Source: Plasmodiophora brassicae (lineage: Eukaryota). From it: a stretch of DNA of 64,000 nucleotides. Where the stretch lies: positions 124,001 through 188,000 of the forward strand of contig CP145425.1 of NCBI GenBank assembly GCA_036867785.1, given 5' to 3'. The translations under genes and the position numbers were made by a program. Within the stretch, counting starts at the first letter, position 1. Every line of letters begins with the position of its first letter. Positions 10,005 through 59,879 of the stretch are shown here, one piece after another. Under the pieces are notes generated by a model. The model was not told the DNA's origin, did not search any database, and worked only from the letters and a program-made list of their open reading frames with translations.

Positions 10005-12365
10005 TCAGACAGCCGCACGTTGTGGCGCGTTACGCGACGTTTGCTTGGCACGAGCGTTGTAGCGTCGGAACCAGAACGGTAACGCAAGCAAGGCGCCGAA
10101 CACGACGATCGCACAGGCCGCTCCACTCAACATGGTGACGGACGACGTCCCGGATGAGAACATGCTGCTCGAACTACTGGATTGCACAGCCACTTGCTCA
10201 CGGTTCGTCGACGCGAAACGACGACTCCACGATGACACCTTTGTTGGCGGGCGCCGCGACCTCGCTAGGCGTGATGACATGCCCTGGGGAGACGACGTTG
10301 TTCGTGCATGACCTCGGCCCTGACGAGCAGGCGTCGGCGAGGGCGTCGCCTGTGATGCTAGATAGCTTGCTGGTGCTGGGGTTGGGGCCGGACGCGGTGA
10401 TGGAGAGTTTGTCAACAATGCAGTTGGTGTTGGCAGTGGTGTTGGTGTGTTTGTTGGCAGTACGATCTGGACCGGTCGCGGCATTGGTGAGTTTGCTAGC
10501 GTTGCGGTCGATGCCGGACGCGGCGTTGGTGAATTTGTTGGCATTGGGGTCGGTATTGCGGGACGCGGTGTTATACGTGAATTTGTTGGCGTCGGGGTCG
10601 GTGCTGCCGGAGCCGGCGTTGGTGAATTTGTTGGCGTTCGCATCGGTGCTGGCAACGTTGCAGGTGTAGGAATTGGTGTCGGGCGTGGGGTTGGAGAGGG
10701 TACTGGTGTTGGAGCCGGCGTCGACGGCTGTGGTGTTGGCATCGGTGCTGGTAACGTTGTTGGTGTAGGTAGAGGTGTCGGCCGAGGCGTTGGAGAGGGT
10801 AATGGTGTTGGCATCGGTGCTGGTAACGTCGCTGGTGTAGGAACAGGTGTCGGTCGAGGCGTGGGAGAGGGTACTGGTGTTGGAGCCGGCGTCGACGGCT
10901 GTGGTGTTGGCATCGGCGCTGGTAACGTTGTTGGTGTAGGAACAGGTGTCGGCCGAGGCGTTGGAGAGGGTACTGGTGTTGGAGCCGGTGTCGACGGCTG
11001 AGGTGTTGGCATCGGCGCTGGTAACGTTGTTGGTGTAGGAACAGGTGTCGGCCGAGGCGTTGGAGAGGGTACTGGTGTTGGAGCCGGTGTCGACGGCTGT
11101 GGTGTTGGCATCGGTACTGGTAACGTCGTTGGTGTAGGAACAGGTGTCGGCCGAGGCGTTGGAGAGGGTACTAGTGTTGGAGCCGGCGTTGGCTGTGGTG
11201 ATGGGAAATTGACTGGTGCTGGGATGGGTGTCAGCCGCGGTGCAGGGGAATTCGTAGGTGCTGACGTTGGTGTCGGACGCGGCGTCGGCGAATTTGCTGA
11301 TGATCCGGGTGGTACTGGAGAGCTCGCGGGTGTTGGCAGTGGTGTGGGAGATGGCGTCACTGCAGGACCGAGCAGAGTGGCTCGGTACCCGTTGCTGTCG
11401 TACGCTTGACAGCCCTGCCATTCTGGGCCGAGGTCGCACGACTTGAGAATGCCTTCGAAATTCTGCGCGTTCGTGGTCGCACACGCAGACGCTGGTGACG
11501 AAACGACTGGGCACCCGGCCGACCCGGCATCAGTGTACTCGGCTGCGAATACGGGCTTGCCCGCCTGAATAAACGGTGTGAATTCCGCACACATGCCAGT
11601 GAAATCGGCACAGGAGTCGACGACGGCGAAGTCGAACACGGGGACCAGGTTGCGCGGCGTGACCAGGTTGCCACAGTCCTTCAGACCAACAGCCATGCCC
11701 AGGCTGTGTACCGTTGCTGAAATCCATTTCATGTAGTCGACAGCGTTGTCAACAGTTAGTCCAAATTTGTTCGCGAGCGAATAGACGTCGAGGTTGTCGG
11801 TTTGGATGCCATGGCACCCGTACGAGGCCATGCGCTGGAACCGGGCCTTGATCAGCGCTCGTGTCTCATTCCGGCGAATGTCCAGCAGATATTGGAAATC
11901 CCAAACCAAGGAAACGGTGTCAATGATCGTAGGCGTAACGGCTGTAAACGCATTCCAATCGACCGCACCAGGGTCCAATGCTCCCACTACGTCGGCCATG
12001 TCACAACATGGACCATGAGGTCAATAGCATGCGAGGTATACCGTTGACGTAGCAGATGATGTACCGGTTGTGGGCGCGAAGAGCGTTCATCATCACGGGA
12101 ATGTCACTAGGAACGAGTCGCTCCGGATCTATGTCCCATACGGGAACATTGGGTGTCGCCACGTTCGGAATAGTATTGAAGAACAGCTCCCACTAAAGCA
12201 ACGAGTCGAATATAAACCGGCGCTGATCGTGACGAATGTAGACATGCCATGTACCTGCCAACCCATGCCGATTTGTGGACTGGTCCACGTTGCTTCAACA
12301 TCTGCCACCCAAGACAGCGCTGCTGCTGCCGCTGCTGCGAACGCCAACGCACTCGTAAGGCCCAT
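10005..12365 (-). CDS. Secreted, membrane-anchored glycoside hydrolase family 114-like protein with a Pro/Thr-rich stalk
   Basis: Signal peptide [19 protein letters not shown], then spliced [41 protein letters not shown] and [12 protein letters not shown] repeat stalk and a C-terminal TM segment ([18 protein letters not shown]) follow. Two short introns near the 5' end. Confidence 0.85.
10640..11190 (-). repeat. Coding tandem repeat, 99-bp (33-aa) unit
   Basis: The unit [33 protein letters not shown] repeats. The anchor GTCGACGGCT occurs at 10891, 10990 and 11089. Confidence 0.9.
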
Positions 12366-26010: not shown

Positions 26011-27534
26011 ATGACCACCTTGCTCACCAATGTCGTTATCGTGGCCGTTGTCTTTACCGCCGTCGCGGCCCAAGTAAGCACCGCTCCGACGCCAAAGCCC
26101 AGCAACACTTCATCACCGACTCCAGCGCCAACTACGCTGTCGTCGCCCACCCCGGCCCCAACTTCAGTGTCTTCGCCTACCCCGGCGCCAACTTCAGGGC
26201 CTCCGACTAGCCCAGCACCAACGACCGCTTCTTCGCAGACCCCGGCGCCGAGTACAGCGGGCTCGCCCACGCCAGCGCCTACGGCCGTTCCTTCAACTAC
26301 CCCAGAGCCAACGGTCGTTTCTCCGCCAACGCCAGCGCCGAGCACATCTTATTCGCCCACCCCAGCGCCAACTAGAGCGTCTTCGCCTACCCCAGCGCCA
26401 ACACCAGCGGGTCCTGGAATCACGTCGACTCCGGCGCCGACACCAGCAAGCACTGGTAACGTCCCGACCCCAGCGCCAACGCCGGCCAGCACGGGCAACA
26501 CCTCATCGCCAGCACCAACGCCAGTGTACGCCCCGACGCCAGCGCCAACGCCAGCCAGCACGGGCAACACCTCATCGCCAGCACCAACACCAGCGTACGC
26601 ACCGACCCCAGCGCCAACGCCGGCTAGCACGGGTAACAGCTCATCGCCAGCACCAACACCAGCGTATGCCCCAACACCAGCACCAACACCAGCTAGCACG
26701 GGCAACACCTCATCGCCAGCACCAACGCCTTCCAGCTCCGGCAATACCTCATCGCCATCGCCAACGTCAGCCAGCACGGGCAACACCTCATCGCCAGCAC
26801 CAACATCAGCGTATGCCCCGACGCCAGCGCCAACATCAGCCAGCACAGGCAACACCTCAACGCCAGCACCAACGCCTTCCAGCTCTGGCAGTACTTCATC
26901 GCCATCGCCAGCCCCAACATACGCCTCGACCCCAGCACCAACGCCAGCGTATACCAAGACGCCAGCACCCACGTCAACGAGTGTGACTCCCTCGCCAACG
27001 ACAACCCAAGCACCGACACCGTTCCCGTCTACTCAGTCTACGTATGCTCCAACGGCTGGGGCGCCCACGACCACAGCCCGCGCGCATTGCATGGCAACGC
27101 CCAAGCCGTGCCCAAACCAGACCTGGCTCGTGTTCACGTGCTACGATGGCGTTATCGTCGGTGGGGCGAAAACCCGGTCGAACCGGGCAGAGCTGCTGGT
27201 GGCGCACAACGGGACGCAGGCGATCACGACTGTCCCGTCAGCCGGCAAGGCGTACACGAACACCAGCGCCTGCTCACCCGTCTTCTTCGTCTACAACACG
27301 ATGACGGGCGTTCTGGAGACGTCGTTGACCGAGACGTCCACGTTCGTGAACGTCTCGGTGAAGACCAGCCCCGACCTCAGGGACGTGTACGTCCTGGCAA
27401 GCGACCCATCGCCCGAGGCGGATATCGTCGCGCTGCTGTTCTCCAGTTACGCGCGCTTCATCAAGTCCGGCCTCTGGAAAGTGCCCGCACGCGCCAGGTA
27501 CGACGCTCTCGTGGCGTTCTTCCACGCCGCGTGA
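26011..27534 (+). CDS. Secreted Pro/Thr/Ser-rich mucin-like protein with a globular C-terminal domain
   Basis: Signal peptide MTTLLTNVVIVAVVFTAVAA, about 330 aa of PTPAP repeats, then a Cys-containing C-terminal region of about 150 aa. Intronless. Confidence 0.85.
   Translation: MTTLLTNVVIVAVVFTAVAAQVSTAPTPKPSNTSSPTPAPTTLSSPTPAPTSVSSPTPAPTSGPPTSPAPTTASSQTPAPSTAGSPTPAPTAVPSTTPEPTVVSPPTPAPSTSYSPTPAPTRASSPTPAPTPAGPGITSTPAPTPASTGNVPTPAPTPASTGNTSSPAPTPVYAPTPAPTPASTGNTSSPAPTPAYAPTPAPTPASTGNSSSPAPTPAYAPTPAPTPASTGNTSSPAPTPSSSGNTSSPSPTSASTGNTSSPAPTSAYAPTPAPTSASTGNTSTPAPTPSSSGSTSSPSPAPTYASTPAPTPAYTKTPAPTSTSVTPSPTTTQAPTPFPSTQSTYAPTAGAPTTTARAHCMATPKPCPNQTWLVFTCYDGVIVGGAKTRSNRAELLVAHNGTQAITTVPSAGKAYTNTSACSPVFFVYNTMTGVLETSLTETSTFVNVSVKTSPDLRDVYVLASDPSPEADIVALLFSSYARFIKSGLWKVPARARYDALVAFFHAA
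26440..26960 (+). repeat. Coding tandem repeat, 69-bp (23-aa) unit
   Basis: The unit STGNTSSPAPTPAYAPTPAPTPA repeats. The anchor AGCACGGG occurs at 26488, 26557, 26626 and 26695. Confidence 0.85.
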
Positions 27535-27828: not shown

Positions 27829-30540
27829 ATGGGCGCCGAACGCAATGGGCTATGTCCGCACCTGGAGGGTGCGCAGGTCGACTCGCGGGCCCTGCTTCTG
27901 CAGTTCCTGCACAAGGTTCGCCCCCCGCGCAATGTTCGCCGCCGGACGCGTTCGCTGATCGGCTGTGCTATTAGTGTCGAGAATCGGGAGACCTGAATGT
28001 CTGCAGCGATTGTAAACAGACTGTACCCGAAGGCCAGACGTTTCTTTGCCTTCAGGTTGGGCGGATCGTAATTCGGCAGGGCGTACGAGAACTCACCGAT
28101 CGGCTCAGTGTTACCCGTCGGATGTTGCCCGCTGTGGGCGATCCTTGAACAAGGACGCGATGAAGCATGCGCAGGAGGCCAACCACCAAGTCAGCATCAA
28201 TACTGCAACGTCCGCGCTGTGGTGCTATGCCTGCGATGACGAGGTCTTTTTCAACGCGTACGCATTGCCAGCTTGCCACGATACGCCTGTACGTGATACG
28301 TGCGACATTACAGGAATGTTGCCGATGAAGACGACGAGGACGGTGACGGCGTTCTGGTTTCCAGAGATAAGTCGCCCGAACGACGTCCCTCGGCTCGAGA
28401 AAGCCCCAATCCGATCACGAGGCTTCTCGAAAGGAGGGGATACAGAGGTGCATATGACAAGTGCTGCAGGCAATGCAGGTCGTACTGATGAAGTCTAAAG
28501 GCGACGGATCGTGGAGGTTTACGTCGAACGTCTCTGGAGGTCGTACTGGGTTTGCCAACCTCGGCAATACGTGCTACCTGAATTCCGGCCTGCAAGCGAT
28601 CATTCACGTTCCTCAAATAATCGCCATATTTGGCCAGCAGCGTGTATGTCGAGCCTTGCATTGTTCTGCTGAATTAGGTAGATCTGACCGCCTTCCATCA
28701 GTTCCTGAGTCCCTCGTTCACCACAGGCACGCGGTATGAACGCCTTCTAGTCGCTTTTGCCATTTTGATTACAAAGGTGGGTAGCATGATGTCCTGCCGC
28801 GGCTTCCGGTGCTGACTCGACCCGTCCAGGTCTGGGAAGGCGCCTATGAGGTCTGCGTGCCAAGAGATTTCGTCCGCGAACTTTGCATGTTAAATCCCGT
28901 GTTTCGTGGCTATGACCAGCAAGATACGCAGGAATTCCTGCGATGTCTCGTCGATGCTCTCCACGAGGCCCTGAAACACAGGGCGCCTATACCTCCTCCG
29001 CCAGATGAACCTGACCGTGTCGCCGCCGAAGATCGCTCCCTGGTATCGGATCTTTTCCAAGGGTTGCTGCTGTCGCAGGTCACGTGTGGGGTCTGCGGGA
29101 ACGTGTCGGAAGTCTACGATCCGTTCATGGACCTGTCGCTTGAAATTCCTACCAAGCAACAACTGAAACGACTGTCGGATGCATTGCCTAATGAGTCCTC
29201 GAAGACCTCTCTTGGCGTCCTGGGCTCCTTCCTGAGCACGCTCTCGTGGTCGTCGCCGAATATGACTCTTGAGCAATGCCTACATTCCTTCTGCTCCCGA
29301 GAGTCCCTTGTCAAGCTTGACCAGTATAAGTGCGAAAATTGCAATCTCAAGGTCAACGCCCACAAGGTTCTGTCGATTGGGCGCTGCCCTGAAATCTTGA
29401 CACTGCACATTAAGCGATTCGCACACAATTCGTACTGGGGGTCTAAGCTGTCCACTCCCGTGGAGTTGCCTCTGCGAGGCCTGGACCTTTCGCCGTTCAT
29501 CAAGAAGACTCGCCCGAATGCACAGGCGCACGACGCACCTCCTGTGTACGACCTCGTGTCTCTGGTTCGGCACATTGGTTCTGTCAACGGGGGCCACTAC
29601 ATTGCCTATGCGAAGCATCACCTGACTGGCCAGTGGTACGAGTTCGACGACCGTAGTGTGACGGCCGTTGCAGAGAACGACATCGTATCTCAAGAGGCGT
29701 ACATACTTCTGTACGCCAAACGACCTCCCCAGTCCAAGGACCCCAGGCCCTTTGACGCCTTCATCGAAAGGTCGTTGGCGCTCAAAGACGATGACACGTC
29801 GCGCTCCGACGTGTTCCTGTCGCTGTACTGGCTCAAGAAGGCCGAAGTAAGGCCTCGGCACAGCGTCGTGTGGATCCGCTGGTGCTGACCTCGTGCACGT
29901 AGATTCTGTCGCACCCGGGTCCAATCGACAACTGGAGCCTGTGCTGCGAACATGGTGTCCCGCGTGAAGGCGATCCTTCGGACGAGAAGGCACTTCGAAT
30001 ATCATCGACGGCGTACGACTCGCTGGTTGATAAGTTCGGGGGCGGCCCCCGAGTCGATGCGAAAGCGGAGGGATTTCCCGCGTCCGACTGCTCCAAGTGC
30101 CTTGCTGGTCGGAGAAAGCTTGAGAAGCGGTACTTTCGTGCGTGTCTTCTGGTGCGCGTGGGACTAACGTCGCCGTCATCCTTACAGTCGTATATCCATT
30201 CTTGACAACGACAGCACCGTCACGCGAGTATATTATTTAATTGCAGAGCAATGGCTCGCATCGTGGCGCGACTTCATCTCTGGAGGTACCGGCGTCGTGC
30301 TGTTTGGTACTGGCGATTTCAAGAGCTGACTTCTCTTTCCAAGGACCGTTGCCCGGTCCCATAGACAATTCCGTTCTTCTCGAGGAGGACGGCGAGACAC
30401 CCAAGCCCGGCTTGGCGGTTGCCAAAGACTACCGTGGTGTTGGCGTTTCTGTCTGGAGAGAGTTCGTGCGACTCTACGGTGGCGGGCCCGCCATCGTCCG
30501 ACACTCCATTGACCTATACGAGCCTACTGCGAAAGACTGA
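27829..30540 (+). CDS. USP20/33: Ubiquitin-specific protease, USP20/33-like (zf-UBP, USP catalytic domain, two DUSP domains)
   Basis: CPHL..LWCYACDDEV zinc finger, Cys box GFANLGNTCYLNSGLQ, QQDTQEF, His box HIGSVNGGHY, and two PGPIDN..YGGGP DUSP motifs. Confidence 0.93.
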
Positions 30541-30572: not shown

Positions 30573-31412
30573 CTAACGTATTGCACGAGGAGGCAGGCCT
30601 GTTGACAACGCAACGCCAGGCGGTGCGTGCTCAGGACGGGATACCGGCACGGGGCTGGTGTCGTGGACGACCTGGGTCGTGCGACGATGCGGTACACTGA
30701 CGACGCATGACTGCAGAAGGTCCACGTCGGCGTGGGAGATGTCAAACGCCTCACCAAGCACAGCAAGAAGGGCGTCCTCGAACGCGGCCCGGTCCGCGAT
30801 ATAACCTGACAGGCCCGTGACAAAGTCGTGATGATCTCTGCCGTTCCTGTACACTGGTTGCCGTTCGGGATGCTTCAGGTACTGCTGCATGGCGTCCTGA
30901 TTGACGTTCCAGAGAAACGACGTGTGATGCACCCAGCGACGACCGCTGATGGTCTGCGCATTGCCAGCGACCTTTCTTTGGCCGACACAGTAGTCGTTCT
31001 CTACCAGCGACAGGCTCGCGCTGCTGCATCGCCTCATAACCTGCTCGTACAGGCCGGCGCTCCAGCTCATGATCGACTTGGGGAACGGGTCCGCGATCGA
31101 ATCCCCGGCGACAAAGCTGACCATGATGGCGTTCTCGTCAATGTAGACGGTACCGCCTCCGGTAAACCGCCGTATGACCCGGACGTTATCGCGCTTCGCG
31201 TTCTCGGCATGCACGAGCCGGTCGACGACGCCGCTGGTCCCGACGACAACCGTCGACTCGGACGGCAACGGGCGATTCACGACCACATAGTTGCGGTCGC
31301 AGTCGCGGCGGTCACCCAGGACGCGGTGCAGGGCCTCCTCGATCCGCAACTGCTCCAGCAGGCAGCGCGACCCCAAATCGAGAAGGCCGACCTGGGGCCG
31401 CCGCCTGACCAT
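30573..31412 (-). CDS. Lipoate-protein ligase A / BPL-LplA-LipB family protein
   Basis: QLRIEEAL, VIRRFTGGGTVYID, ENDY..RKVAGNAQ..RWVHHTSFLW and YR.GR.H.DF motifs. Intronless. Confidence 0.92.
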   Translation of the reverse strand: MVRRRPQVGLLDLGSRCLLEQLRIEEALHRVLGDRRDCDRNYVVVNRPLPSESTVVVGTSGVVDRLVHAENAKRDNVRVIRRFTGGGTVYIDENAIMVSFVAGDSIADPFPKSIMSWSAGLYEQVMRRCSSASLSLVENDYCVGQRKVAGNAQTISGRRWVHHTSFLWNVNQDAMQQYLKHPERQPVYRNGRDHHDFVTGLSGYIADRAAFEDALLAVLGEAFDISHADVDLLQSCVVSVPHRRTTQVVHDTSPVPVSRPEHAPPGVALSTGLPPRAIR

Positions 31413-31649
31413 GTCTGGCCCGCCCCGTGGTCGCGAGCAACGACCGCAACCTGCACAAAAAAACGTCGGCCGGCAGCCTCTGTTTTGTCCGACACAAGTG
31501 GGGGACGGCCACCGAGACCGACGACAGACAGATGCGATCGTTTTTGGCGGCGGTCGTGACGGCCATTTTGCGCGGGAGAGGCCGCCGCCCGGCACAGCCT
31601 GTGCGAAGAGGTCGTCGGGTGCAGCGGGGGCGGCGTTCGCGTGTGGCCG

Positions 31650-32924
31650 ATGTCGATCGCCGAGCTCGATGGATACATTGAGAAGCTGCTGAAGTGCGAG
31701 TACCTGACGGAGGACCAGGTGGCCACGCTCTGCAATAAGGTTCGGGGCGAGCGGATCTGTGCCCCGTCGCTGGCCCCCCGCTGATCCGCGTTTGGGCAGG
31801 CCCGCGAGGTGCTCATACACGAGTCCAATGTCCAGCCGGTGAAGTGCCCGGTGACGGTCTGTGGCGATATCCATGGTCAGTTCCATGACCTTATGGAATT
31901 GTTCCGCATCGGCGGCAACGCGCCCGACACGAACTATCTGTTCATGGGCGACTACGTCGACCGCGGGTATTATTCCGTCGAGTCGGTCTCGCTGCTCGTC
32001 GCACTCAAGGTCGGTTTCATCCGCCTGTCGGGCGTGCCGCTCGCGCGCTCACTGATTGCCCCGGCAGGTTCGATTCCGGGAGCGGATAACGATCCTGCGA
32101 GGGAACCACGAATCGCGACAGATCACGCAAGTGTATGGGTTCTACGACGAATGCCTGCGCAAATATGGCAATGCCAACGTGTACGTCGTTCATAATGGAG
32201 GGGTTGGCCGTCCGATTTCGCGCCTGCTCCTAACAGTCTGTGTTATCGATAGGTGGAAATACTTTACGGATCTGTTTGATTTCCTGCCACTGACGGCGTT
32301 GATCGAGAAGCAAATATTCTGCCTGCACGGCGGCCTGTCGCCTTCCATCGACACATTGGACCATATCATGAATCTGGACCGCGTCCAAGAGGTGCCTCAC
32401 GAGGGCCCCATGTGCGACCTGCTGTGGTCCGACCCTGATGATCGGTGTGGCTGGGGTATATCACCTCGTGGTGCCGGCTATACGTTTGGGCAGGACATCT
32501 CGGAGCAGTAGGCCCTATATGTGTCACGTTGCCGCGAGCGTGTCGCTGACGCGGGGTCGTTAGGTTCAACCATACAAACGGGCTGACGCTCGTCTCGCGG
32601 GCACACCAGCTTGTCATGGAAGGATACAACTGGTGCCACGAGAAGAACGTCGTGACCATCTTCAGTGCGCCGAACTACTGCTATCGTATGGACGGTGGCG
32701 CCTCCACTGTGACCTCGTCGGGTACTCATGGCTGTTCCCACAGGCTGTGCGAACCAGGCGGCCATCATGGAGATCGATGAGCACCTAGAATATACGTTCC
32801 TGCAATTCGACCCTGCTCCGCGTCGAGGCGAGCCGCATGTTACGCGCCGCTGTCCAGGTAGACGCGACGTGGCTTGCCCGCTTCTGATGCCCAACTTAGT
32901 CGCCTCACAGACTATTTCCTATAA
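31650..32924 (+). CDS. PP2A-C: Serine/threonine protein phosphatase 2A catalytic subunit
   Basis: [34 protein letters not shown] and SAPNYCY motifs. C-terminus [16 protein letters not shown]. Confidence 0.98.
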
Positions 32925-53080: not shown

Positions 53081-54774
53081 TTAATATTGTGTTACACTCC
53101 CAAGATGTAGGGCAGACTCGCACGTTCCGACGCGTTTCGACAGTAATTGCAAAGACGCCAGAGCGTTGGCAAGTGCCTTCTCGAGCGTTGCCACGCGGGA
53201 CTCCAGTTCGGACGGCTGCGTCGATGGTGGTGGAACAGATGCATCTTCGTGTTCTACTGTCTGGACCTCACAGGTCGTTTGCTGAACGTTTCGAAGGGCT
53301 TTCACTCTGTACAAGAATTGTCAAAGTAACGGACCATCAGTACCAGACGATTCCTAACCGTTCCATGCAGCTCCTGAATACGACCCGAAGACGCCTCCGG
53401 CGCCAATGACTCTGGATAACGGTCGCTGCGACCCCTCTAACTGTCCACCTTGTGCTGGAAGACAGCTTTTGGACGTCAGGAAGGCCGGCTGAAAGCCTGG
53501 CACTGGTTAACCTGCAGAGCAAACATCAACGGCGGGAGCCAACAGTTGGTTGAGATCACGTACCTCAGGTTCGCTAAACATTCTGACAGCATATTGTCGA
53601 CATCGTCATCACCAGATGCAGGTCCGTCTGCAAACACGAATTGGGATGACGAACGCACGTCGAGATTGTCACTGCCAGGCTGCAGTATTGTACACACACG
53701 GCCTGCATCCTTCTTGTCGGTATTCTCAACCGGGGCGACAGAACGCAAGTAGCGCGTCAGTTCGTCCTCGTATCCGCCGTTTAGCAGGTTCAGCAGGTCG
53801 AGGGACAGTTCTAGCGAGGGACCTTCGCAGAACAGCACCCTGCTCTGACTCCTGCAGCACAATACTGTCAACGTGAACAACAGGCTGACGATGACGAGTG
53901 CTTACAGCTCGTTTTGACTAGGAGGGCGCTCGTCGATTGTCTCTATAAATGGTAGAACGAAGCAGATAAACGCTCTGTAGCTGTAGCCATCTCTGTACGC
54001 TGTAATGATGAACGGATTGTCATCTGCAGAAACTTCAATTGCGAGCAGATGCGACGAACCTGCATCTTACCGCACGACAGGGAACGAAGCTCGTCGAGGC
54101 CACTGAGGAACGTGAACGATTGCAGGCTGGCCAAGGCATTGCTGGACAAGCTTAGCCACCGTAACGACGCACGTGGCAACAAGTCAGAGGCGTCTTGCAA
54201 CGACGATATGAAGTTAGCCGTCAAATCGAGAACCTGCCAGGGTTGGCGTCAGCGGGGCACAAATGCGATATACGATGCCAGCCAATCACGGCATAGACCA
54301 CCTCAAGGTTTTCATTCTTTGTCAGATCGCTGATCGATTCGATCTCGTTATTCGCCAGATTCAGTACACGAAGATGACGAAGCGAAGACAGGTTATCGAT
54401 GTCGCGAATAACATTATTCGACAGATTCAGCTCCTGCAGGTGAACCGAACCCTCCAGCCCTGCCACATGACAGCATCAGGAACGCATCGACCAATGAATA
54501 CACAACCGCTAACCATGAATATTCGATATCGCGTTATAGGACAGATCGAGAACTCTCAGTCTTGATAGTAATGCAAAGGGGCTGCCCGCCAGCGACGATA
54601 TGCCGTTATCGAACAGATGCAACACTTCCAGCGTATGCCCAAACTCAACAGGAAACGGATCGACCCGCGAAATCGAATTCTTGCCTGCAGATCGAAAACC
54701 TCAGCCGGGCGAACATGTTATGGGCGAGGACCCGCACCGAGATCGAGCTCGACGACGTCGGCGTCACCGACCAT
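53081..54774 (-). CDS. Leucine-rich-repeat protein with an IQ motif and coiled coil, CEP97-like
   Basis: SDS22-type LRRs (LEVLHLFDNGI, LRVLDLSYNAI, LQELNLSNNVI, LRVLNLANNEI), AATVIQSHWR and SELESRVATLEKAL. Confidence 0.75.
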
Positions 54775-55109
54775 ATTGGCCGCCGCATCTACGGATGTGA
54801 TCCCGCGTCCTAATCATCAACAGTCGGGCCCCCGTTCTGTAAACAATCAAAGCGGCGCCCGCTCACCAGCCAGCTGAAGTCGGTGGTGACCGCCCGCGCG
54901 TCCCTCCGGCTCCTGCGCCGTCATGTCATTTGCCCGCCGCCAAATGTCGCGCTCGACAAAAATAGCCACCGAATGCAACAGGGACCGCCCGATTCCGACG
55001 ACTGCAGATCTCATCGTCGTGACGCACTGGGGACCCACTGCAGCTTCTGAGTCACGGGGCGCCGGCAGCTGCAGCTCTCGCTGAGCGAATACGTTACGGG
55101 CGCTGTATA

Positions 55110-57776
55110 TTACCAGAAGCCGCCACAGGAGCAGCGGCCGTCCTGGAAGTGGTGGTGACAGTCGGCGTCGCGAACGAAGACGTCGCGCTTGAAGATGTAC
55201 GAGACACGCCGGACGGCGTCGTGGCAGTCGGAGCAGAGCGACTGGTTGACGGTGATGCGCACAGGCGCACCCGGGCGCAACGTCGTTAACGCGTACGACA
55301 CCGCCAGCTTGACGCTGTGCCTGTACACAGCGGGACGTGCGAAGTCGCTGCTCGCGGGCGTGTACCCATCATCAAGCAGCGCCTGCATCACAACGTCGTG
55401 CTGTTCGACCAGACCCGGATCGTACTGGCATCGTTCGTCGTCCGAGAAGAAATGGTGAGGGCGATCCGACAATTGCAGCGACGTCCGGCACGGCATCTTC
55501 GATACGCCTCTGCCTTTCACCGTGTTCCGCACGCGTGCCATGTCCTCGTACTGCCCAGCAGCGGCGTGAATATCGGCCATCAGCAGGTACGCGTTCGAGA
55601 TCAACGCCACTGGGGCGTTACTCGCACTGATCATGGCGAAGACGCGTTCGGCGCGCGCGACATCTCGATGTGCCCGGCAGGCACGCAGCAGGGCCATCGA
55701 CGATGGTGCTAGGCGCTCCGCCTCATCCAGGTCGCCGACTCGGCCGTGCACAGCGGCAAGACACGCGATATGATCGCCATTCATCGCGACTCGCCAGACA
55801 TCACCGAATTCAGCAACGAGGTCCTTGGCGCGTTCCGGGTCCCTGCAACCTGATAGAAGCGCCGTTAACGTTCCCGCATCAGGTCGCCATGTCCCAGACG
55901 CTTTCATGCGCTCATAAGTCGCTAACGCCAGATCCAGCGCCCCATAGCGGGAATAGGCGGCGATCATGGCGTTAACGAGCGTGATGCCGGCGGTCGCGAT
56001 ACGGCGTTCGAAGAGCTGTTCGGCGGCGTCGAGGCGCCAGCAATGCGCGTAGGCGGACACGAATGCGCGCGCGATCGTGTCGTCCTGCAGAAGCAATTCG
56101 TTCTGGGACAGGCGTTGCAGCGTGGCGATCTCAGAGGAGCGACCGCAGGCGGCCACCAGGCTGGTGAACACGGCAGCGTCGCGCTCGACCGCATCGGTGA
56201 AGAACGACATGGCGGTCGGCACCTCGTCGATCTTGGCAAGGGCGGCAACCAGGTCGGACAGCACGGCCGGGTCCAGATCCAGGCTGGCCTGACGCAGGTT
56301 GCCCACGACGGTAAGCGCGTCAGCGACTCGCCAACGGTACCCGTAGGCGGCGATCATGGCGACGAACGCGCTAGCAGGCGGTTTCGTCATGCTTTGGAAC
56401 ACGGTCTCAGCAGCGGCCAGGTCGCCACATTGATCGTAGGCGGAGATCAGGGCGCTGGCGACAGCGTTGTTGTTCGCGTACTTGTGCAGGTTCTTGACGG
56501 CGGGAAGGTCCTGGCACCGAGCCGAGGCCGTGAGCAGGTGAACCAGGACGGACGGGTGCACAGACACGCCTCGCGACACCATGTCGTTGAACAGGTGCAC
56601 CGCCCGAGGCACCGCGTTCGCCTTGGCCAGGACCGACAGGATCGTCGTGTACAGCCGATCCGACGGGGTGACGTTCGCGTTGTCGAACAGGCCGATCGCC
56701 TTGTCCAGCAGGCCGTGCCGGGCGTACCCGGCGACCATGACGTTGACCAGCGGGGCGTCGGGCGTGTCGACCCCGGCGAAGACGCGCTCGGCAGACGGAA
56801 GGTCGCCACACCTCTCGAACGCGGACACGAGTGAGCACGCGATCACGACGTCGCCGACGATCGCGCTTCGCGTCGCGTAGTCGTGCAGGACCCGGATGGA
56901 CGGCAGGTCGTCAGCGCGGGCGCACGCGCCGATCAGCAACGTGATCACGGGGACGCCCGGGGCGACGTTCCGTTCGATCATCCTCCGGAACATGGATATG
57001 GCCTGTTGCACGCGATCGGCCTTGGCAAGGGCGGACAGGACGTGCGTGTAGATGTGAACGGACGGTGGCATGGTGCCGTCGACCAGGTCGACGACGTCGA
57101 CGGCGTCGTCGATGCGGTTCTGCGCCAGGAACGCCTTGATCAGGTTGCCGTACGCCTGCGGGACCGGATGCGATGGGACACGCCCCGAGCGGATCAATGC
57201 CAGGAGGTGGGCGGCCGCGTTGGCCGATCTGGATTCGGCGCAGCAGACGGCGAAGACGGTCAGGAGGCGGTCGGTGAACTCGACGTTGTGGGTGACGGCG
57301 TCGGCGATGAGCGGCAGGGCGGCCTGAGGGGCGTGTGCCAGCCGCGCGAGGTCCACCATGCCGAGGATGACGTTGTGGGTGCGCGGGGCGCATCGCTGGT
57401 ACATGTCGAACGCGGGGCGGGTCAGCGGCGGCGTTGCCGATTGGCACGAGCCGAGGAACGTGCAGAACAAGCCTTCGCAGACGGGGATCCCGCGGGACAG
57501 CGCCGCGTCGAGCACGTCGGGCGCTTTCGCCGGCAGGCGACGTTTGCAGAACGACAGCATGACTTGGAACAGGCGGACGTCGGCAGGCGTTCCCGACCGG
57601 ACCACGTCCTGGAACATGGTCCAGCCGCGGTCCGGGTCGCGTTCCCGTTTCAGGTCGCGGACGACCTTCGGCACCGACGGTCCCTGCCCGAACATGGCGT
57701 CGAGCCCGGCCTGCGTCGCATAGCGGACGCGCCGCGCGACATGACGGTCCAGGGCGCGCCGCACAGCCGACCGCAT
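55110..57776 (-). CDS. PLS-like pentatricopeptide repeat protein with E and DYW-type C-terminal domains (888 aa, intronless)
   Basis: Arg-rich presequence and many PPR motifs of mixed length (SLVSAFERCGDLPSAERVFAG; NVMVAGYARHG). E-domain AYLLMADIHAAAG, then HSVKLA..CSDCH..VRD..HHF.DGRCSCGGFW*. Confidence 0.95.
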   Translation of the reverse strand: MRSAVRRALDRHVARRVRYATQAGLDAMFGQGPSVPKVVRDLKRERDPDRGWTMFQDVVRSGTPADVRLFQVMLSFCKRRLPAKAPDVLDAALSRGIPVCEGLFCTFLGSCQSATPPLTRPAFDMYQRCAPRTHNVILGMVDLARLAHAPQAALPLIADAVTHNVEFTDRLLTVFAVCCAESRSANAAAHLLALIRSGRVPSHPVPQAYGNLIKAFLAQNRIDDAVDVVDLVDGTMPPSVHIYTHVLSALAKADRVQQAISMFRRMIERNVAPGVPVITLLIGACARADDLPSIRVLHDYATRSAIVGDVVIACSLVSAFERCGDLPSAERVFAGVDTPDAPLVNVMVAGYARHGLLDKAIGLFDNANVTPSDRLYTTILSVLAKANAVPRAVHLFNDMVSRGVSVHPSVLVHLLTASARCQDLPAVKNLHKYANNNAVASALISAYDQCGDLAAAETVFQSMTKPPASAFVAMIAAYGYRWRVADALTVVGNLRQASLDLDPAVLSDLVAALAKIDEVPTAMSFFTDAVERDAAVFTSLVAACGRSSEIATLQRLSQNELLLQDDTIARAFVSAYAHCWRLDAAEQLFERRIATAGITLVNAMIAAYSRYGALDLALATYERMKASGTWRPDAGTLTALLSGCRDPERAKDLVAEFGDVWRVAMNGDHIACLAAVHGRVGDLDEAERLAPSSMALLRACRAHRDVARAERVFAMISASNAPVALISNAYLLMADIHAAAGQYEDMARVRNTVKGRGVSKMPCRTSLQLSDRPHHFFSDDERCQYDPGLVEQHDVVMQALLDDGYTPASSDFARPAVYRHSVKLAVSYALTTLRPGAPVRITVNQSLCSDCHDAVRRVSYIFKRDVFVRDADCHHHFQDGRCSCGGFW

Positions 57777-58296
57777 CGCTCGACGACGACCCGCAACTGC
57801 TCAGCGCAGACGCCGACAATAATAGGGCGGCACACTGTTAGGGATGTCTGCGAGCGCATGATGAGCATGCGCCGGTTGGCGTCGAAGTGGTGCACTCCGG
57901 ATTGCGGGGATGCGCCTGTGGTTTAGAGCATCTCCACCGGTGCTCTAGATTCCAGATTTGGTGTAACTTGGGGGTTCTCCCAGCGGTGTAAACGGGAGAG
58001 GTGTCGGCGCCTTGGCGCATGGAGTCATCTGACGAGTCTGACGAGTTCCCGCTGCCGTCGAGCGACGACGATTACGACGATATGAGTGCGTAATCTTGTC
58101 ATACGCTAACCACCTCAAGATCCACCCTCGAAGCCAATGCCGGTGGTTCGTGCGAGATTCCGTCACGAGGGCACCCGATTTAGAGTGAGGTACCCCTTTT
58201 TAACTGCGTGGAGATGGCCTCCTTCCAGCCAGTCGTCGTTTCGTCTCTGACGCCGTCCCCGTTGGGCACCTGATCGGTCGCCGTCAAGAAACCTGC

Positions 58297-59879
58297 ATGG
58301 ACATCGACGTGTGCGGTTTTCTCAAACTCGTTCTGCGCACCCTAATCGTGTTCGCTGTTGCCAGTGACGCTGTGACGCTGCGCTCCTGTGACGGCGTTGA
58401 CCACAGCGTCGACACCTTGTCTGCGATCGCCCATTCCGGACTGCTGAAGGGTCTGATCGGCGGTCCCAACTCATCTGACGCCTTAATTCCCCTACCTGAA
58501 GTCGCCAATTCAGAGTTGCTGTCGATTGCTAGGTTCATCAACGTCGTTGGAGCGCACCAGGTATCCTCGCATTCGACTGATGATCTTCTGTTGTCCATCG
58601 ACGTTTATTTGGAATTCCGCAGTTCAAACTGGCCGCCCAGTGGGCTCGGAGTCATGCGGCGAACACGACACGGCATGAAGCGCGGTGCCGCTTGCTGAAA
58701 GCTGCCTGTTACCTCGACATGCGGCCACTGACAATTGCCATCGTGTCCGCTACGTCGTTCAGTCCGCTCGACGTTTCTGAGATGCGGGAAACGCTGCCGA
58801 ACGAGTTCTTCCGGTTCGTCATGGGCACCGGCAGGCTGTCTCGTGCTGCGGAAACAAAGAACCAGAAGGCGATCGTAGACCAGATCCATGATATCATTGT
58901 TCGCGATGGCGACCCGACCCACGAAATTGAGGCCGCCGTATCTTTCGTTAGTAACGCTGAATGGGATCCCAAACTGCATCACACTGTGCTACATTGGGCG
59001 GTGCTCCATCGAGAGGATGCGATTCTTGCATTTCTGATCAACCATGTTCCCGGTATTGACGTCAATGCACGTGACAAGTTCCTCAAATCAACGCCGTTGC
59101 ATCTGGCCGCAACTTCTGGGGATGTTAACGCCATCAAGTTGCTTCTGGGGGTCGAAGGGATCGATGTGAACCCTCGCGATGCGTTTGGGATGACGCCGTT
59201 GTCGTGGGCCGTTGCTAGCAAGGGTAAGCATGCCGTCGAAATTCTTTTAAAGGCACCCGGAATCGACGTCAATTCCTGCGACGCTGACGATCAGACACCT
59301 TTGTACACCGCTGTGAAGGTTGGATGTCTAGATATCATCGTCTCACTTCTCAGTGCCGACGGGATCAACGTCAACCCTCGTACCAACGACCAAAGCACGC
59401 CGCTGCACAAGGCAGTGATTGATGGACGAGATGACATCGTCGAATTGCTTCTGCATGCCCATGGCATCGACCTCAACGCTCGCGACAATATGCAGAGGAC
59501 GCCGCTACACTGGGCCGCGATTAAGGGATACGATCGCATCGTCCAGCTACTGTTGATTGACCTAGGGGTCATGGTCAACGCGCTCGACACCTGGAATAAG
59601 ACGGCGCTGGACTATGCTACGTCCCAAGGATTCAGCCGTACCGTCGTCTTGCTGATGAGTACACCGGGAGTCGATTCCACGACATGCGATGACGATCGGG
59701 AAACACCGCCGGAGATGGCCGAAGCAAACCGCGGGTGGCCTGACGTGCCATCCCCTCTTGATCACACGCCCTGGGGCATTGATATCGAGTACAAGCAGGA
59801 CCCGATGATACAGGGGATTCGTCAACTGGCCGATAGTCAAGTGAGGCGCAGCACACAACCCCCTAATCACGACCCGTGA
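58297..59879 (+). CDS. Secreted SKP1/BTB-like plus ankyrin-repeat protein (effector candidate)
   Basis: Signal-like N-terminus (LVLRTLIVFAVASDA), then VTLRSCDG..HSGLLKGLI..IPLPEVANSELLSIARF|..LLKAACYLDM, then about 7 ankyrin repeats (TPLH type). An intron at 58561-58622 joins the two ORFs. Confidence 0.88.

Follow-up and report, generated by a model that had tools for sequence, protein, structure and literature searches.

Proteins that combine pentatricopeptide repeats (PPRs) with a DYW domain are RNA editing factors typical of the organelles of land plants, and few are found in other lineages. The land-plant factors of the "PLS" class, represented among known structures by 9kfx, OTP86 (7o4e/7o4f) and DYW1 (7w86), consist of P, L and S repeats, the E1 and E2 motifs and a DYW fold with H...CxxCH and H...CxC motifs, and their genes are intron-free. 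All of these features are shared by the product of a gene found at 55110..57776 on the minus strand of a 64,000-nucleotide (nt) stretch of contig CP145425.1 (positions 124,001 to 188,000) from Plasmodiophora brassicae; this whole stretch is referred to below as the window, and the 888-residue protein as P0001. The protein nevertheless departs from its land-plant counterparts in several respects: Val822 stands in the place of the catalytic Glu, the KNLR stretch ahead of CxxC has been lost and the PG-box Gly has become Cys, the repeats are arranged in P-P'-L-S quadruplets and are preceded by five family-specific cryptic N-terminal hairpins, and the host is a rhizarian parasite, whose protein is 23-25% identical to plant proteins.

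Outside plants, heteroloboseans carry about 10-12 PPR-DYW sequences. The PPR-DYW proteins of Naegleria, Acrasis, Physarum, the paradinids (which are themselves Rhizaria) and the Agaricales have been tied to mitochondrial cytidine-to-uridine (C-to-U) editing; they keep the His, the Glu and both Cys of the active site and occur in small families, the two paradinid sets comprising 1 and 3 sequences (PMC11946409). P. brassicae differs from these organisms in having at least 39 such proteins at 50% clustering, half of them non-canonical; the paradinid sequences are outside the trees described below.

Two further systems provide precedents for the natural loss of the Glu. In the DOT4 protein of the Poaceae, HSE has become HSS in all cases, after the editing site itself was lost by a C-to-T change; the PPR array has been kept and even extended. 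DOT4 with HSS is judged non-functional, and a new role in RNA binding is proposed for it in the same paper, which mentions similar proposals for CRR2 and PpPPR43 (PMC6424221). This is the closest parallel to P0001 on record. P0001 resembles DOT4 in having lost the Glu while keeping its PPR array, but it belongs to another kingdom, has Val rather than Ser, and shares its non-canonical state with 18 others of the 39 paralogs in one genome, whereas DOT4 is a single orthologue. In ADAT3 (Tad3), the partner of ADAT2, a domain with the cytidine deaminase (CDA) fold has Val218 at the Glu site and retains the zinc ligands His216, Cys254 and Cys257 (PMC7713142), which is the same combination of a Glu-to-Val replacement with kept His/Cys/Cys ligands that is seen in P0001. 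ADAT3 differs in belonging to another deaminase clade, in lacking a PPR tract, and in being a proven obligate partner of ADAT2.

The gene is a single exon of 888 codons followed by the stop codon TAA at 55110-55112, and its minus-strand frame, which runs without interruption from ATG to TAA, is the longest ATG-initiated open reading frame (ORF) of the window. The first-pass annotation of the window had reported an intact, intronless ORF here, and this description is upheld when contigs from four public sequencing runs are compared with positions 54500-58500. Contigs of 2721 nt (run X16, record 2), 2706 nt (run X18, record 10) and 4820 nt (run X5) are colinear with 55090-57779, 55090-57795 and 55083-58500, respectively, in each case with 0 differences and 0 gaps, and the transcript contigs span 55090..57795 on the minus strand, which corresponds to a 3' untranslated region of about 20 nt and a 5' leader of 3-19 nt. 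The RNA type of these three runs is only guessed; since contigs of the adjacent minus-strand gene skip introns in all of them (a 53-nt intron, from 54683 to 54737 with CT..AC on the plus strand, in X5, X16 and X18, and a 57-nt intron, from 54808 to 54866, also in X5), they contain spliced transcripts. Run X20, the sole run recorded as RNA-Seq (oligo-dT), contributes two 151-nt contigs that cover 55520-55809 only and leave codon 822 uncovered. The PPR-DYW gene is transcribed, without an intron, in a locally intron-bearing and very compact region, where a gap of about 50 nt is all that parts the 3' end of its transcript from the 5' end of the neighbouring gene. Four contig "joints" (with sides of 20-22 nt) were considered as signs of splicing inside the gene and rejected: they come from small parts of other contigs, carry 2-7 mismatches and arise from paralog cross-matches. 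The X16 contig also carries 31 letters past 57779 that have no genome match, where X18 is colinear to 57795, and these may represent a second form of the leader or else a chimera made in assembly.

P0001 clusters at 90% with CEP01412.1, the hypothetical protein PBRA_002018 of P. brassicae, and is identical to the PBRA_002018 protein of strain e3 (P0013) at 876 of 888 residues (99%); the gene is a nuclear P. brassicae gene, an allele of PBRA_002018. The e3 gene model is longer, at 919 residues, with 31 extra residues at the N-terminus; in the window (57777-57870) the frame of the corresponding upstream ATG is shifted by one base relative to the main ORF, and the transcript contigs stop at 57779 (X16) and 57795 (X18). 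Most probably the extra residues are an artefact of annotation or assembly, or reflect a 1-nt difference between the strains.

Judged by its sequence and predicted structure, P0001 is a plant-style, PLS-type PPR-E-DYW protein, and the mixed-length PPRs, E domain and DYW-type domain that the first-pass annotation had recognized are all recovered by one or more of Pfam, alignment to PDB chains and structural models. Residues 1-30 (57687..57776; this and the following segments are all on the minus strand) form an Arg-rich N-terminal helix that is a putative mitochondrial presequence by sequence and model: residues 1-29 contain 7 Arg and 1 Asp, and in the full-length model a lone helix spans residues 2-29 with a predicted local distance difference test (pLDDT) score of 54-61, features which are plausibly compatible with such a presequence. 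Five cryptic PPR-like helical hairpins follow at residues 35-197 (57186..57674), appearing as helix pairs in the model within the family-specific N-terminal region; they have no Pfam PPR match, the Pfam PPR families beginning at residue 208. Residues 206-689 (55710..57161) contain fifteen PPR motifs of 27-36 residues, which were delimited using a repeat hidden Markov model (HMM) built from the family, the starts of helix A in the model, Pfam (PPR, 3.8e-36; PPR_2, 8.5e-35) and PDB matches. Their order is P-P'-L-S (three rounds and one leading P) and then P2-L2-S2, where P' denotes an additional "LAKAxR" P-type motif ahead of each L-S pair; the registers given by this HMM are those of the structural model.

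The E1 and E2 motifs, which resemble tetratricopeptide repeats, occupy residues 694-755 (55512..55697) as the helix pairs 694-718 and 723-755, with a Pfam E_motif score of 22.5 bits that is under the cut-off of 27.3. The DYW-type deaminase-fold domain at residues 756-888 (55113..55511), in which the zinc ligands are kept and the Glu is lost, is identified by Pfam (DYW_deaminase, PF14432, residues 817-888, 82.1 bits where the cut-off is 24, E 2.5e-23), by the model and by Foldseek. In a HMMER comparison with PDB chains, P0001 matches the synthetic PPR-DYW protein of crystal structure 9kfx with a whole-protein E of 1.4e-74, residues 666-888 being aligned, as well as DYW1 (7w86, 1.5e-16) and OTP86 (7o4e, 3.2e-15). 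The full-length AlphaFold model, built from a 59-row family alignment, has a mean pLDDT of 93.4 and contains 20 hairpins, E1/E2 and an alpha/beta domain at 764-888, and residues 692-888 modelled alone have a pLDDT of 93.2. Because the model of residues 692-888 matches the 9kfx E1/E2-DYW module (TMq 0.82), the OTP86 DYW domain (TMt 0.87 and 0.78; 7o4e, E 1.1e-8) and DYW1 (7w86, TMt 0.78) in Foldseek, the DYW fold is predicted to be intact.

The active site of this domain has been altered at its key position. Val822, with codon GTC at 55311..55313, occupies the catalytic Glu position of the HxE motif both in the alignment with 9kfx, which pairs HSVKLA with HSEKLA and CSDCH with CGDCH, and in the alignment of DYW domains, and GTC is two changes away from GAA or GAG. 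The zinc ligands predicted from the sequence are all present: H820 (55317-55319), C848 and C851 of the CSDCH motif, which ends in H852 (55221..55235), and H875, C882 and C884 of the C-terminal H/CxC site HHHF...CSCGGFW (55113..55157, with HHHF at 55146-55157 and CSCGGFW, including the terminal GFW, at 55113-55133). The same Val is found in the contigs of three runs and in two haplotypes, those of this assembly and of strain e3; an assembly slip is ruled out, as P0013 likewise reads HSVKLA. The replacement of HSEKLA by HSVKLA through a codon two changes from Glu, with the zinc ligands retained, is thus as the first-pass annotation had described it.

The extent of the change around the Glu position can be gauged from the 35 columns in which 77 canonical DYW domains show conservation of 80% or more. 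P0001 is off the consensus at 10 of these (G763C, L796V, E822V, K843V, L845Q, R846S, K856R, I866V, R873C and D886G), including the K-N-L-R stretch ahead of CxxC and the PG-box Gly, while every His and Cys ligand is kept; by sequence, the surroundings of the active site appear to have decayed and the scaffold to have been retained. Two further features call for qualification. The PG-box equivalent KMPCRTSL (55476..55499) is present as noted, but it is largely a family trait, the PG box of the paralogs being K.PGRT.L, and G763C alone is particular to P0001, this position being Gly in 81% of canonical domains. The GFW ending is also present, but it is not diagnostic of decay, because 2 of 57 canonical DYW domains outside the family share it.

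In the chemistry of CDA-fold deaminases, Val is unable to serve as a proton shuttle. With Val in place of the Glu that shuttles protons in HxE, and with changes at nine other conserved positions, the DYW domain of P0001 can be inferred, from its sequence and by analogy, to be unable to deaminate cytidine. The first-pass suggestion of a pseudo-deaminase is accordingly the natural reading of a Glu-to-Val replacement with kept zinc ligands, given that Ala at any key HxE or CxxC residue of PPR65 leads to full loss of editing (PMC6397227) and given the example of grass DOT4 (PMC6424221).

The loss of the Glu in P0001 is best understood in the context of its paralogs. An exhaustive HMMER search of 1.84 billion representative proteins gave 12,635 matches at E <=0.001, and the best 150 of these 12,635 together with proteins found earlier make up the 161 used here. 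Membership of the P0001 family was defined as sharing residues 25-235 of P0001 with more than 120 residues aligned; this N-terminal region is common to 63 of the 161 proteins, or 59 rows after four near-duplicates are dropped. A DYW region is present in 39 of the 59 rows, so that the family has at least 39 proteins of this kind at 50%-identity clustering, and the 20 rows with no DYW match may be incomplete sequences or members that genuinely lack the domain. These counts refer to 50%-identity representatives in which alleles of several isolates are mixed, and they are lower bounds. Source names for 25 of the 39 identify 23 P. brassicae proteins and 2 ENA metagenome proteins, and UniProt/NCBI label family proteins as "DYW domain-containing protein". 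The source label "(mitochondrion)" on the P. brassicae PPR proteins P0017, P0036, P0189 and P0194 is a record artefact, their contigs being 1.2-2.1 Mb long, and provides no evidence of location.

The columns of H820, E822, C848 and C851 were read in an alignment of 100 DYW regions, 39 from the family and 61 from outside it, the named non-family proteins being from plants. In the family, 20 domains are canonical, 12 have lost the Glu but kept the three ligands and 7 have lost the His or a CxxC Cys, compared with 57, 2 and 2 outside the family; the non-canonical share is thus 19/39 against 4/61 (Fisher p 1.6e-6). The 12 Glu replacements, all in proteins named as P. brassicae, are Val in 3 (P0001, P0029 and P0042), Thr, Asp, Ala and Pro in 2 each, and Cys in 1, so that the balance of HxE to HxV paralogs, a matter which the first-pass annotation had raised, is 20 HxE-intact canonical members of 39 to 3 with Val. 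H875, C882 and C884 are kept in all 39 family domains, and the median number of departures from the consensus is 4.5 for canonical, 9.5 for Glu-lost and 12 for ligand-lost members.

When six plant-like DYW proteins are used to root the trees, the family members, 39 in all, are monophyletic, with a Shimodaira-Hasegawa-like approximate likelihood ratio test (SH-aLRT) value of 100 (and 100/100), and the metagenome proteins P0059 and P0092 fall outside the clade of the other 37 (94; 100/99). Within this 37-member clade the branching is star-like and the terminal branches are long (median 0.73), which indicates an old burst of duplication, and P0001 is placed in an unsupported polytomy within it. 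The state changes between canonical and non-canonical on the tree number at least 13, and supported sister pairs of mixed state are found (P0003/P0040, P0021/P0033 and P0046/P0054); active-site loss is repeated within the family, and P0001 is no unique oddity. The HSV-bearing P0042 is the sister of the Glu-bearing P0035 (99/92), and free trees separate the three HSV paralogs, but the approximately unbiased (AU) test does not reject a single clade for them (p 0.765) and the constrained tree has the higher likelihood; the Val may have arisen once or several times.

A well-supported subclade (94/97, 100/99) consists of three paralogs, P0018, P0031 and P0047, of which P0018 lies on the same 741-kb contig as P0001. 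All three are non-canonical, but in different ways (HVD, loss of the first Cys and loss of the second Cys), which suggests that DYW domains, once disabled, are carried on from one duplication to the next. Four ENA/JGI metagenome proteins (P0059, P0092, P0198 and P0199) have the canonical HSEK, and because they share the DYW-region motifs of the family, uncultured relatives also carry it. A search with the 59-row family profile gave 13 matches, among which no further named organism has the family N-terminus, the names being P. brassicae, plants and a PPR-only protein of Effrenium.

The reading of P0001 preferred here, which is given roughly even chances on the basis of sequence, models and analogy, is that of a mitochondrial sequence-specific RNA binder that is descended from an editing factor and no longer deaminates. 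The protein would probably be imported into the mitochondrion, where a specific single-stranded mitochondrial RNA would be recognized by its approximately 20 helical repeats, each binding about one nucleotide, and the E1/E2-DYW module would still be folded with its zinc ligands but would carry out no cytidine deamination. The former C-to-U editing factor would then act by binding only, in line with the proposals for grass DOT4, CRR2 and PpPPR43; it might stabilize a transcript, influence its structure, or assist the folding and splicing of a mitochondrial intron. The mitochondrial DNA (mtDNA) of P. brassicae contains 54 introns, that of Spongospora 5 (PMC6823432), and the former are plausible candidates for a substrate that does not involve editing.

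Evidence on whether P0001 is still maintained comes from a comparison, at the amino-acid level, of proteins of this assembly with those of strain e3. The 12 residues of 888 that differ between the strains are all conservative, no indel is present, and the 2667-nt frame is intact in both haplotypes. All 12 differences fall within residues 260-577 (56046..56999, minus strand), a block of 36% of the length (p 4e-6 if they were evenly spread), while the N-terminal 259 residues, which include the five hairpins, and the C-terminal 311 residues have none. Diversifying selection on the RNA-specificity residues was considered and rejected, as only 1 of the 12 differences, R570S, lies on a position-5 specificity residue. 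The terminal branch of P0001 (0.61) is not above the family median (0.73). The intact frame in two haplotypes, the clustered conservative changes, the ordinary branch and the transcription of the gene are signs of continuing constraint, and selection on P0001 reads as weakened, not absent.

Several observations weigh against the preferred reading. In five canonical paralog pairs 3 of 3980 residues differ between the strains (0-1 per pair), against 67 of 7069 over eight non-canonical pairs, with 1/563 and 1/445 in two partial ones. The differences in the ten non-canonical pairs exceed those in the five canonical pairs by a one-sided Mann-Whitney test (p 0.02), in a small strain sample in which the genomes seem to form a mosaic of identical and divergent stretches, a confounder, and two of the non-canonical pairs are identical. 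By this comparison constraint has been relaxed in the non-canonical paralogs, which favours the view of P0001 as a relic. In addition, canonical plant pairs of the 5/last code are present in about 6 of the 15 PPR motifs, three motif boundaries being uncertain, and since contigs drop rare variants, a minor allele or a partial change at codon 822 is possible.

If P0001 is a relic, it is an editing factor that became obsolete when its target changed from C to T in the mtDNA and that, still intact and transcribed, is drifting towards loss without a function. This alternative is unlikely, but it is the best of the competing explanations. DOT4 provides a documented case in which an editing factor no longer needed decays step by step (PMC6424221), and decay of this type would account for the 12/888 strain differences of P0001 as against 0-1 in each of the five canonical pairs, for the change of 10 of the 35 conserved DYW positions, for a codon that is two steps from Glu, and for the recurrence of loss in the family, with its 13 or more state changes. 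It fits less well with a frame that shows no indel between two divergent haplotypes, with conservative differences that are confined to 36% of the length (p 4e-6) and leave the termini invariant and all zinc ligands in place, with a branch length that is not elevated, and with a structure model of high confidence. The complete H...CxC tail in all 19 of the non-canonical members among the 39 paralogs is likewise unexpected under simple decay.

The first-pass annotation had also proposed that P0001 is a specificity factor which recruits an active DYW protein in trans. As a non-catalytic partner in an editosome, P0001 would select the site through its PPR tract, an active DYW paralog would catalyse, and the dead zinc-bearing domain would play a structural part of the ADAT3 type. 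The superfamily does provide an analogue in yeast ADAT3, a structural heterodimer subunit with Val218 for Glu and kept zinc ligands (PMC7713142); the 20 canonical paralogs are possible donors of the activity, and 12 of the 39 paralogs lack the Glu but have the zinc ligands. However, a search for short DYW-only proteins gave 120 matches without one that is named as P. brassicae, the best match, P0197 (165 residues), starting inside E2 and looking like a fragment. The dead domain would moreover fill the place needed by an active one, and to our knowledge full-length plant DYW proteins with a mutated HxE are not rescued in trans. A complex prediction for the E-DYW modules of P0001 and the canonical P0003 scored 0.00, which in a run without controls is no evidence either way. 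A role in trans is quite improbable, and a distinctly tentative status attaches to its extension to the whole organelle, in which P. brassicae mitochondria would have a hitherto undescribed plant-type C-to-U system with about 20 active PPR-DYW deaminases and with the Glu-less zinc-bearing paralogs, P0001 among them, as non-catalytic partners that select or hold the RNA in the manner of ADAT2/ADAT3.

There is little to recommend the idea that the DYW domain has another, Glu-independent catalytic activity, for example site-specific RNA cleavage as part of RNA processing: recombinant DYW1 is reported to be associated with an RNase activity (PMC10318007) and the kept metal ligands would suit a metal-dependent activity, but no nuclease site is apparent in the sequence and the conserved basic residues beside CxxC (K843 and R846) have been lost. 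That P0001 is a still-active cytidine deaminase in which another residue replaces the Glu is very improbable despite the zinc ligands and fold that sequence and model indicate to be kept, as Val, by the established CDA-fold chemistry, is unable to shuttle protons, the Glu is present in 57 of 61 non-family domains (and by definition in all 77 canonical ones), and Ala substitution abolishes editing (PMC6397227).

The family as a whole has implications that go beyond P0001, which alone is a more ordinary object, a degenerate paralog of a known kind. An editing system in P. brassicae is plausible because 20 of the 39 paralogs are HxE-intact, and plant-type C-to-U editing in phytomyxid mitochondria is, on this sequence evidence, a plausible prediction; if it is true, a major pathogen of crops has mitochondrial C-to-U editing. 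According to the 2025 paper on paradinids, rhizarians were without any report of such editing until its own data, and Phytomyxea are unmentioned in the available text of that paper (PMC11946409); a survey of 2026 counts 31 DYW domains in Rhizaria that its available text does not name (PMC13386178). Full-text literature searches on Phytomyxea or P. brassicae with RNA editing found no report of editing in the parasite, and those on Plasmodiophora with DYW or pentatricopeptide found host plants, host genes and a generic mention, with no description of the parasite proteins. Within the literature searched, the size of the family, its P-P'-L-S layout, its cryptic N-terminal repeats, its share of disabled sites and the implied editing system are apparently undescribed. 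The presence of at least 39 PPR-DYW proteins in an obligate intracellular plant parasite is far above the counts given earlier for other protists. The family constitutes a natural series of DYW domains at various stages of active-site loss, which is useful for the study of roles of the DYW domain besides deamination, and it bears on the question of whether non-plant DYW genes came by transfer from plants.

With regard to the origin of the gene itself, the first-pass annotation had taken the absence of introns as a hint of retrocopying or horizontal acquisition. P0001 is 23-25% identical to plant proteins, compared with 37-40% to P. brassicae paralogs, and horizontal acquisition of the gene is contradicted by this low plant identity, by the monophyly of a family with N-terminal repeats of its own and by the neighbour about 50 nt away. 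Contamination by host DNA and recent transfer were rejected on similar grounds, namely the paralog identity, the monophyletic lineage-specific family and the adjoining intron-bearing parasite gene. As for retrocopying, no run of A that might be a poly(A) remnant is seen after the stop codon, in 54980-55130, although such traces would no longer be expected at an insertion of great age; the 3' flank has no hallmark of a retrocopy, and retroposition during the old expansion of the family is neither shown nor excluded.

The neighbouring minus-strand gene, at 54513-55038, has two GT..AG mini-introns, at 54684-54736 (53 nt) and 54809-54865 (57 nt). Long exons of an ankyrin-repeat protein (58719-59879, plus strand), of a ubiquitin C-terminal hydrolase fragment (28887-29888, plus strand) and of a lipoyl ligase A/B domain (30573-31886, minus strand) are ordinary parasite gene content. 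Elsewhere in the window, a 664-residue ORF at 10005-11999 contains a GH114 glycoside-hydrolase domain and lies within a segment of strong GC skew (+0.25), and a 507-residue ORF at 26011-27534, which has no Pfam match, lies within a segment with a GC skew of -0.20 and an AT skew of +0.16.

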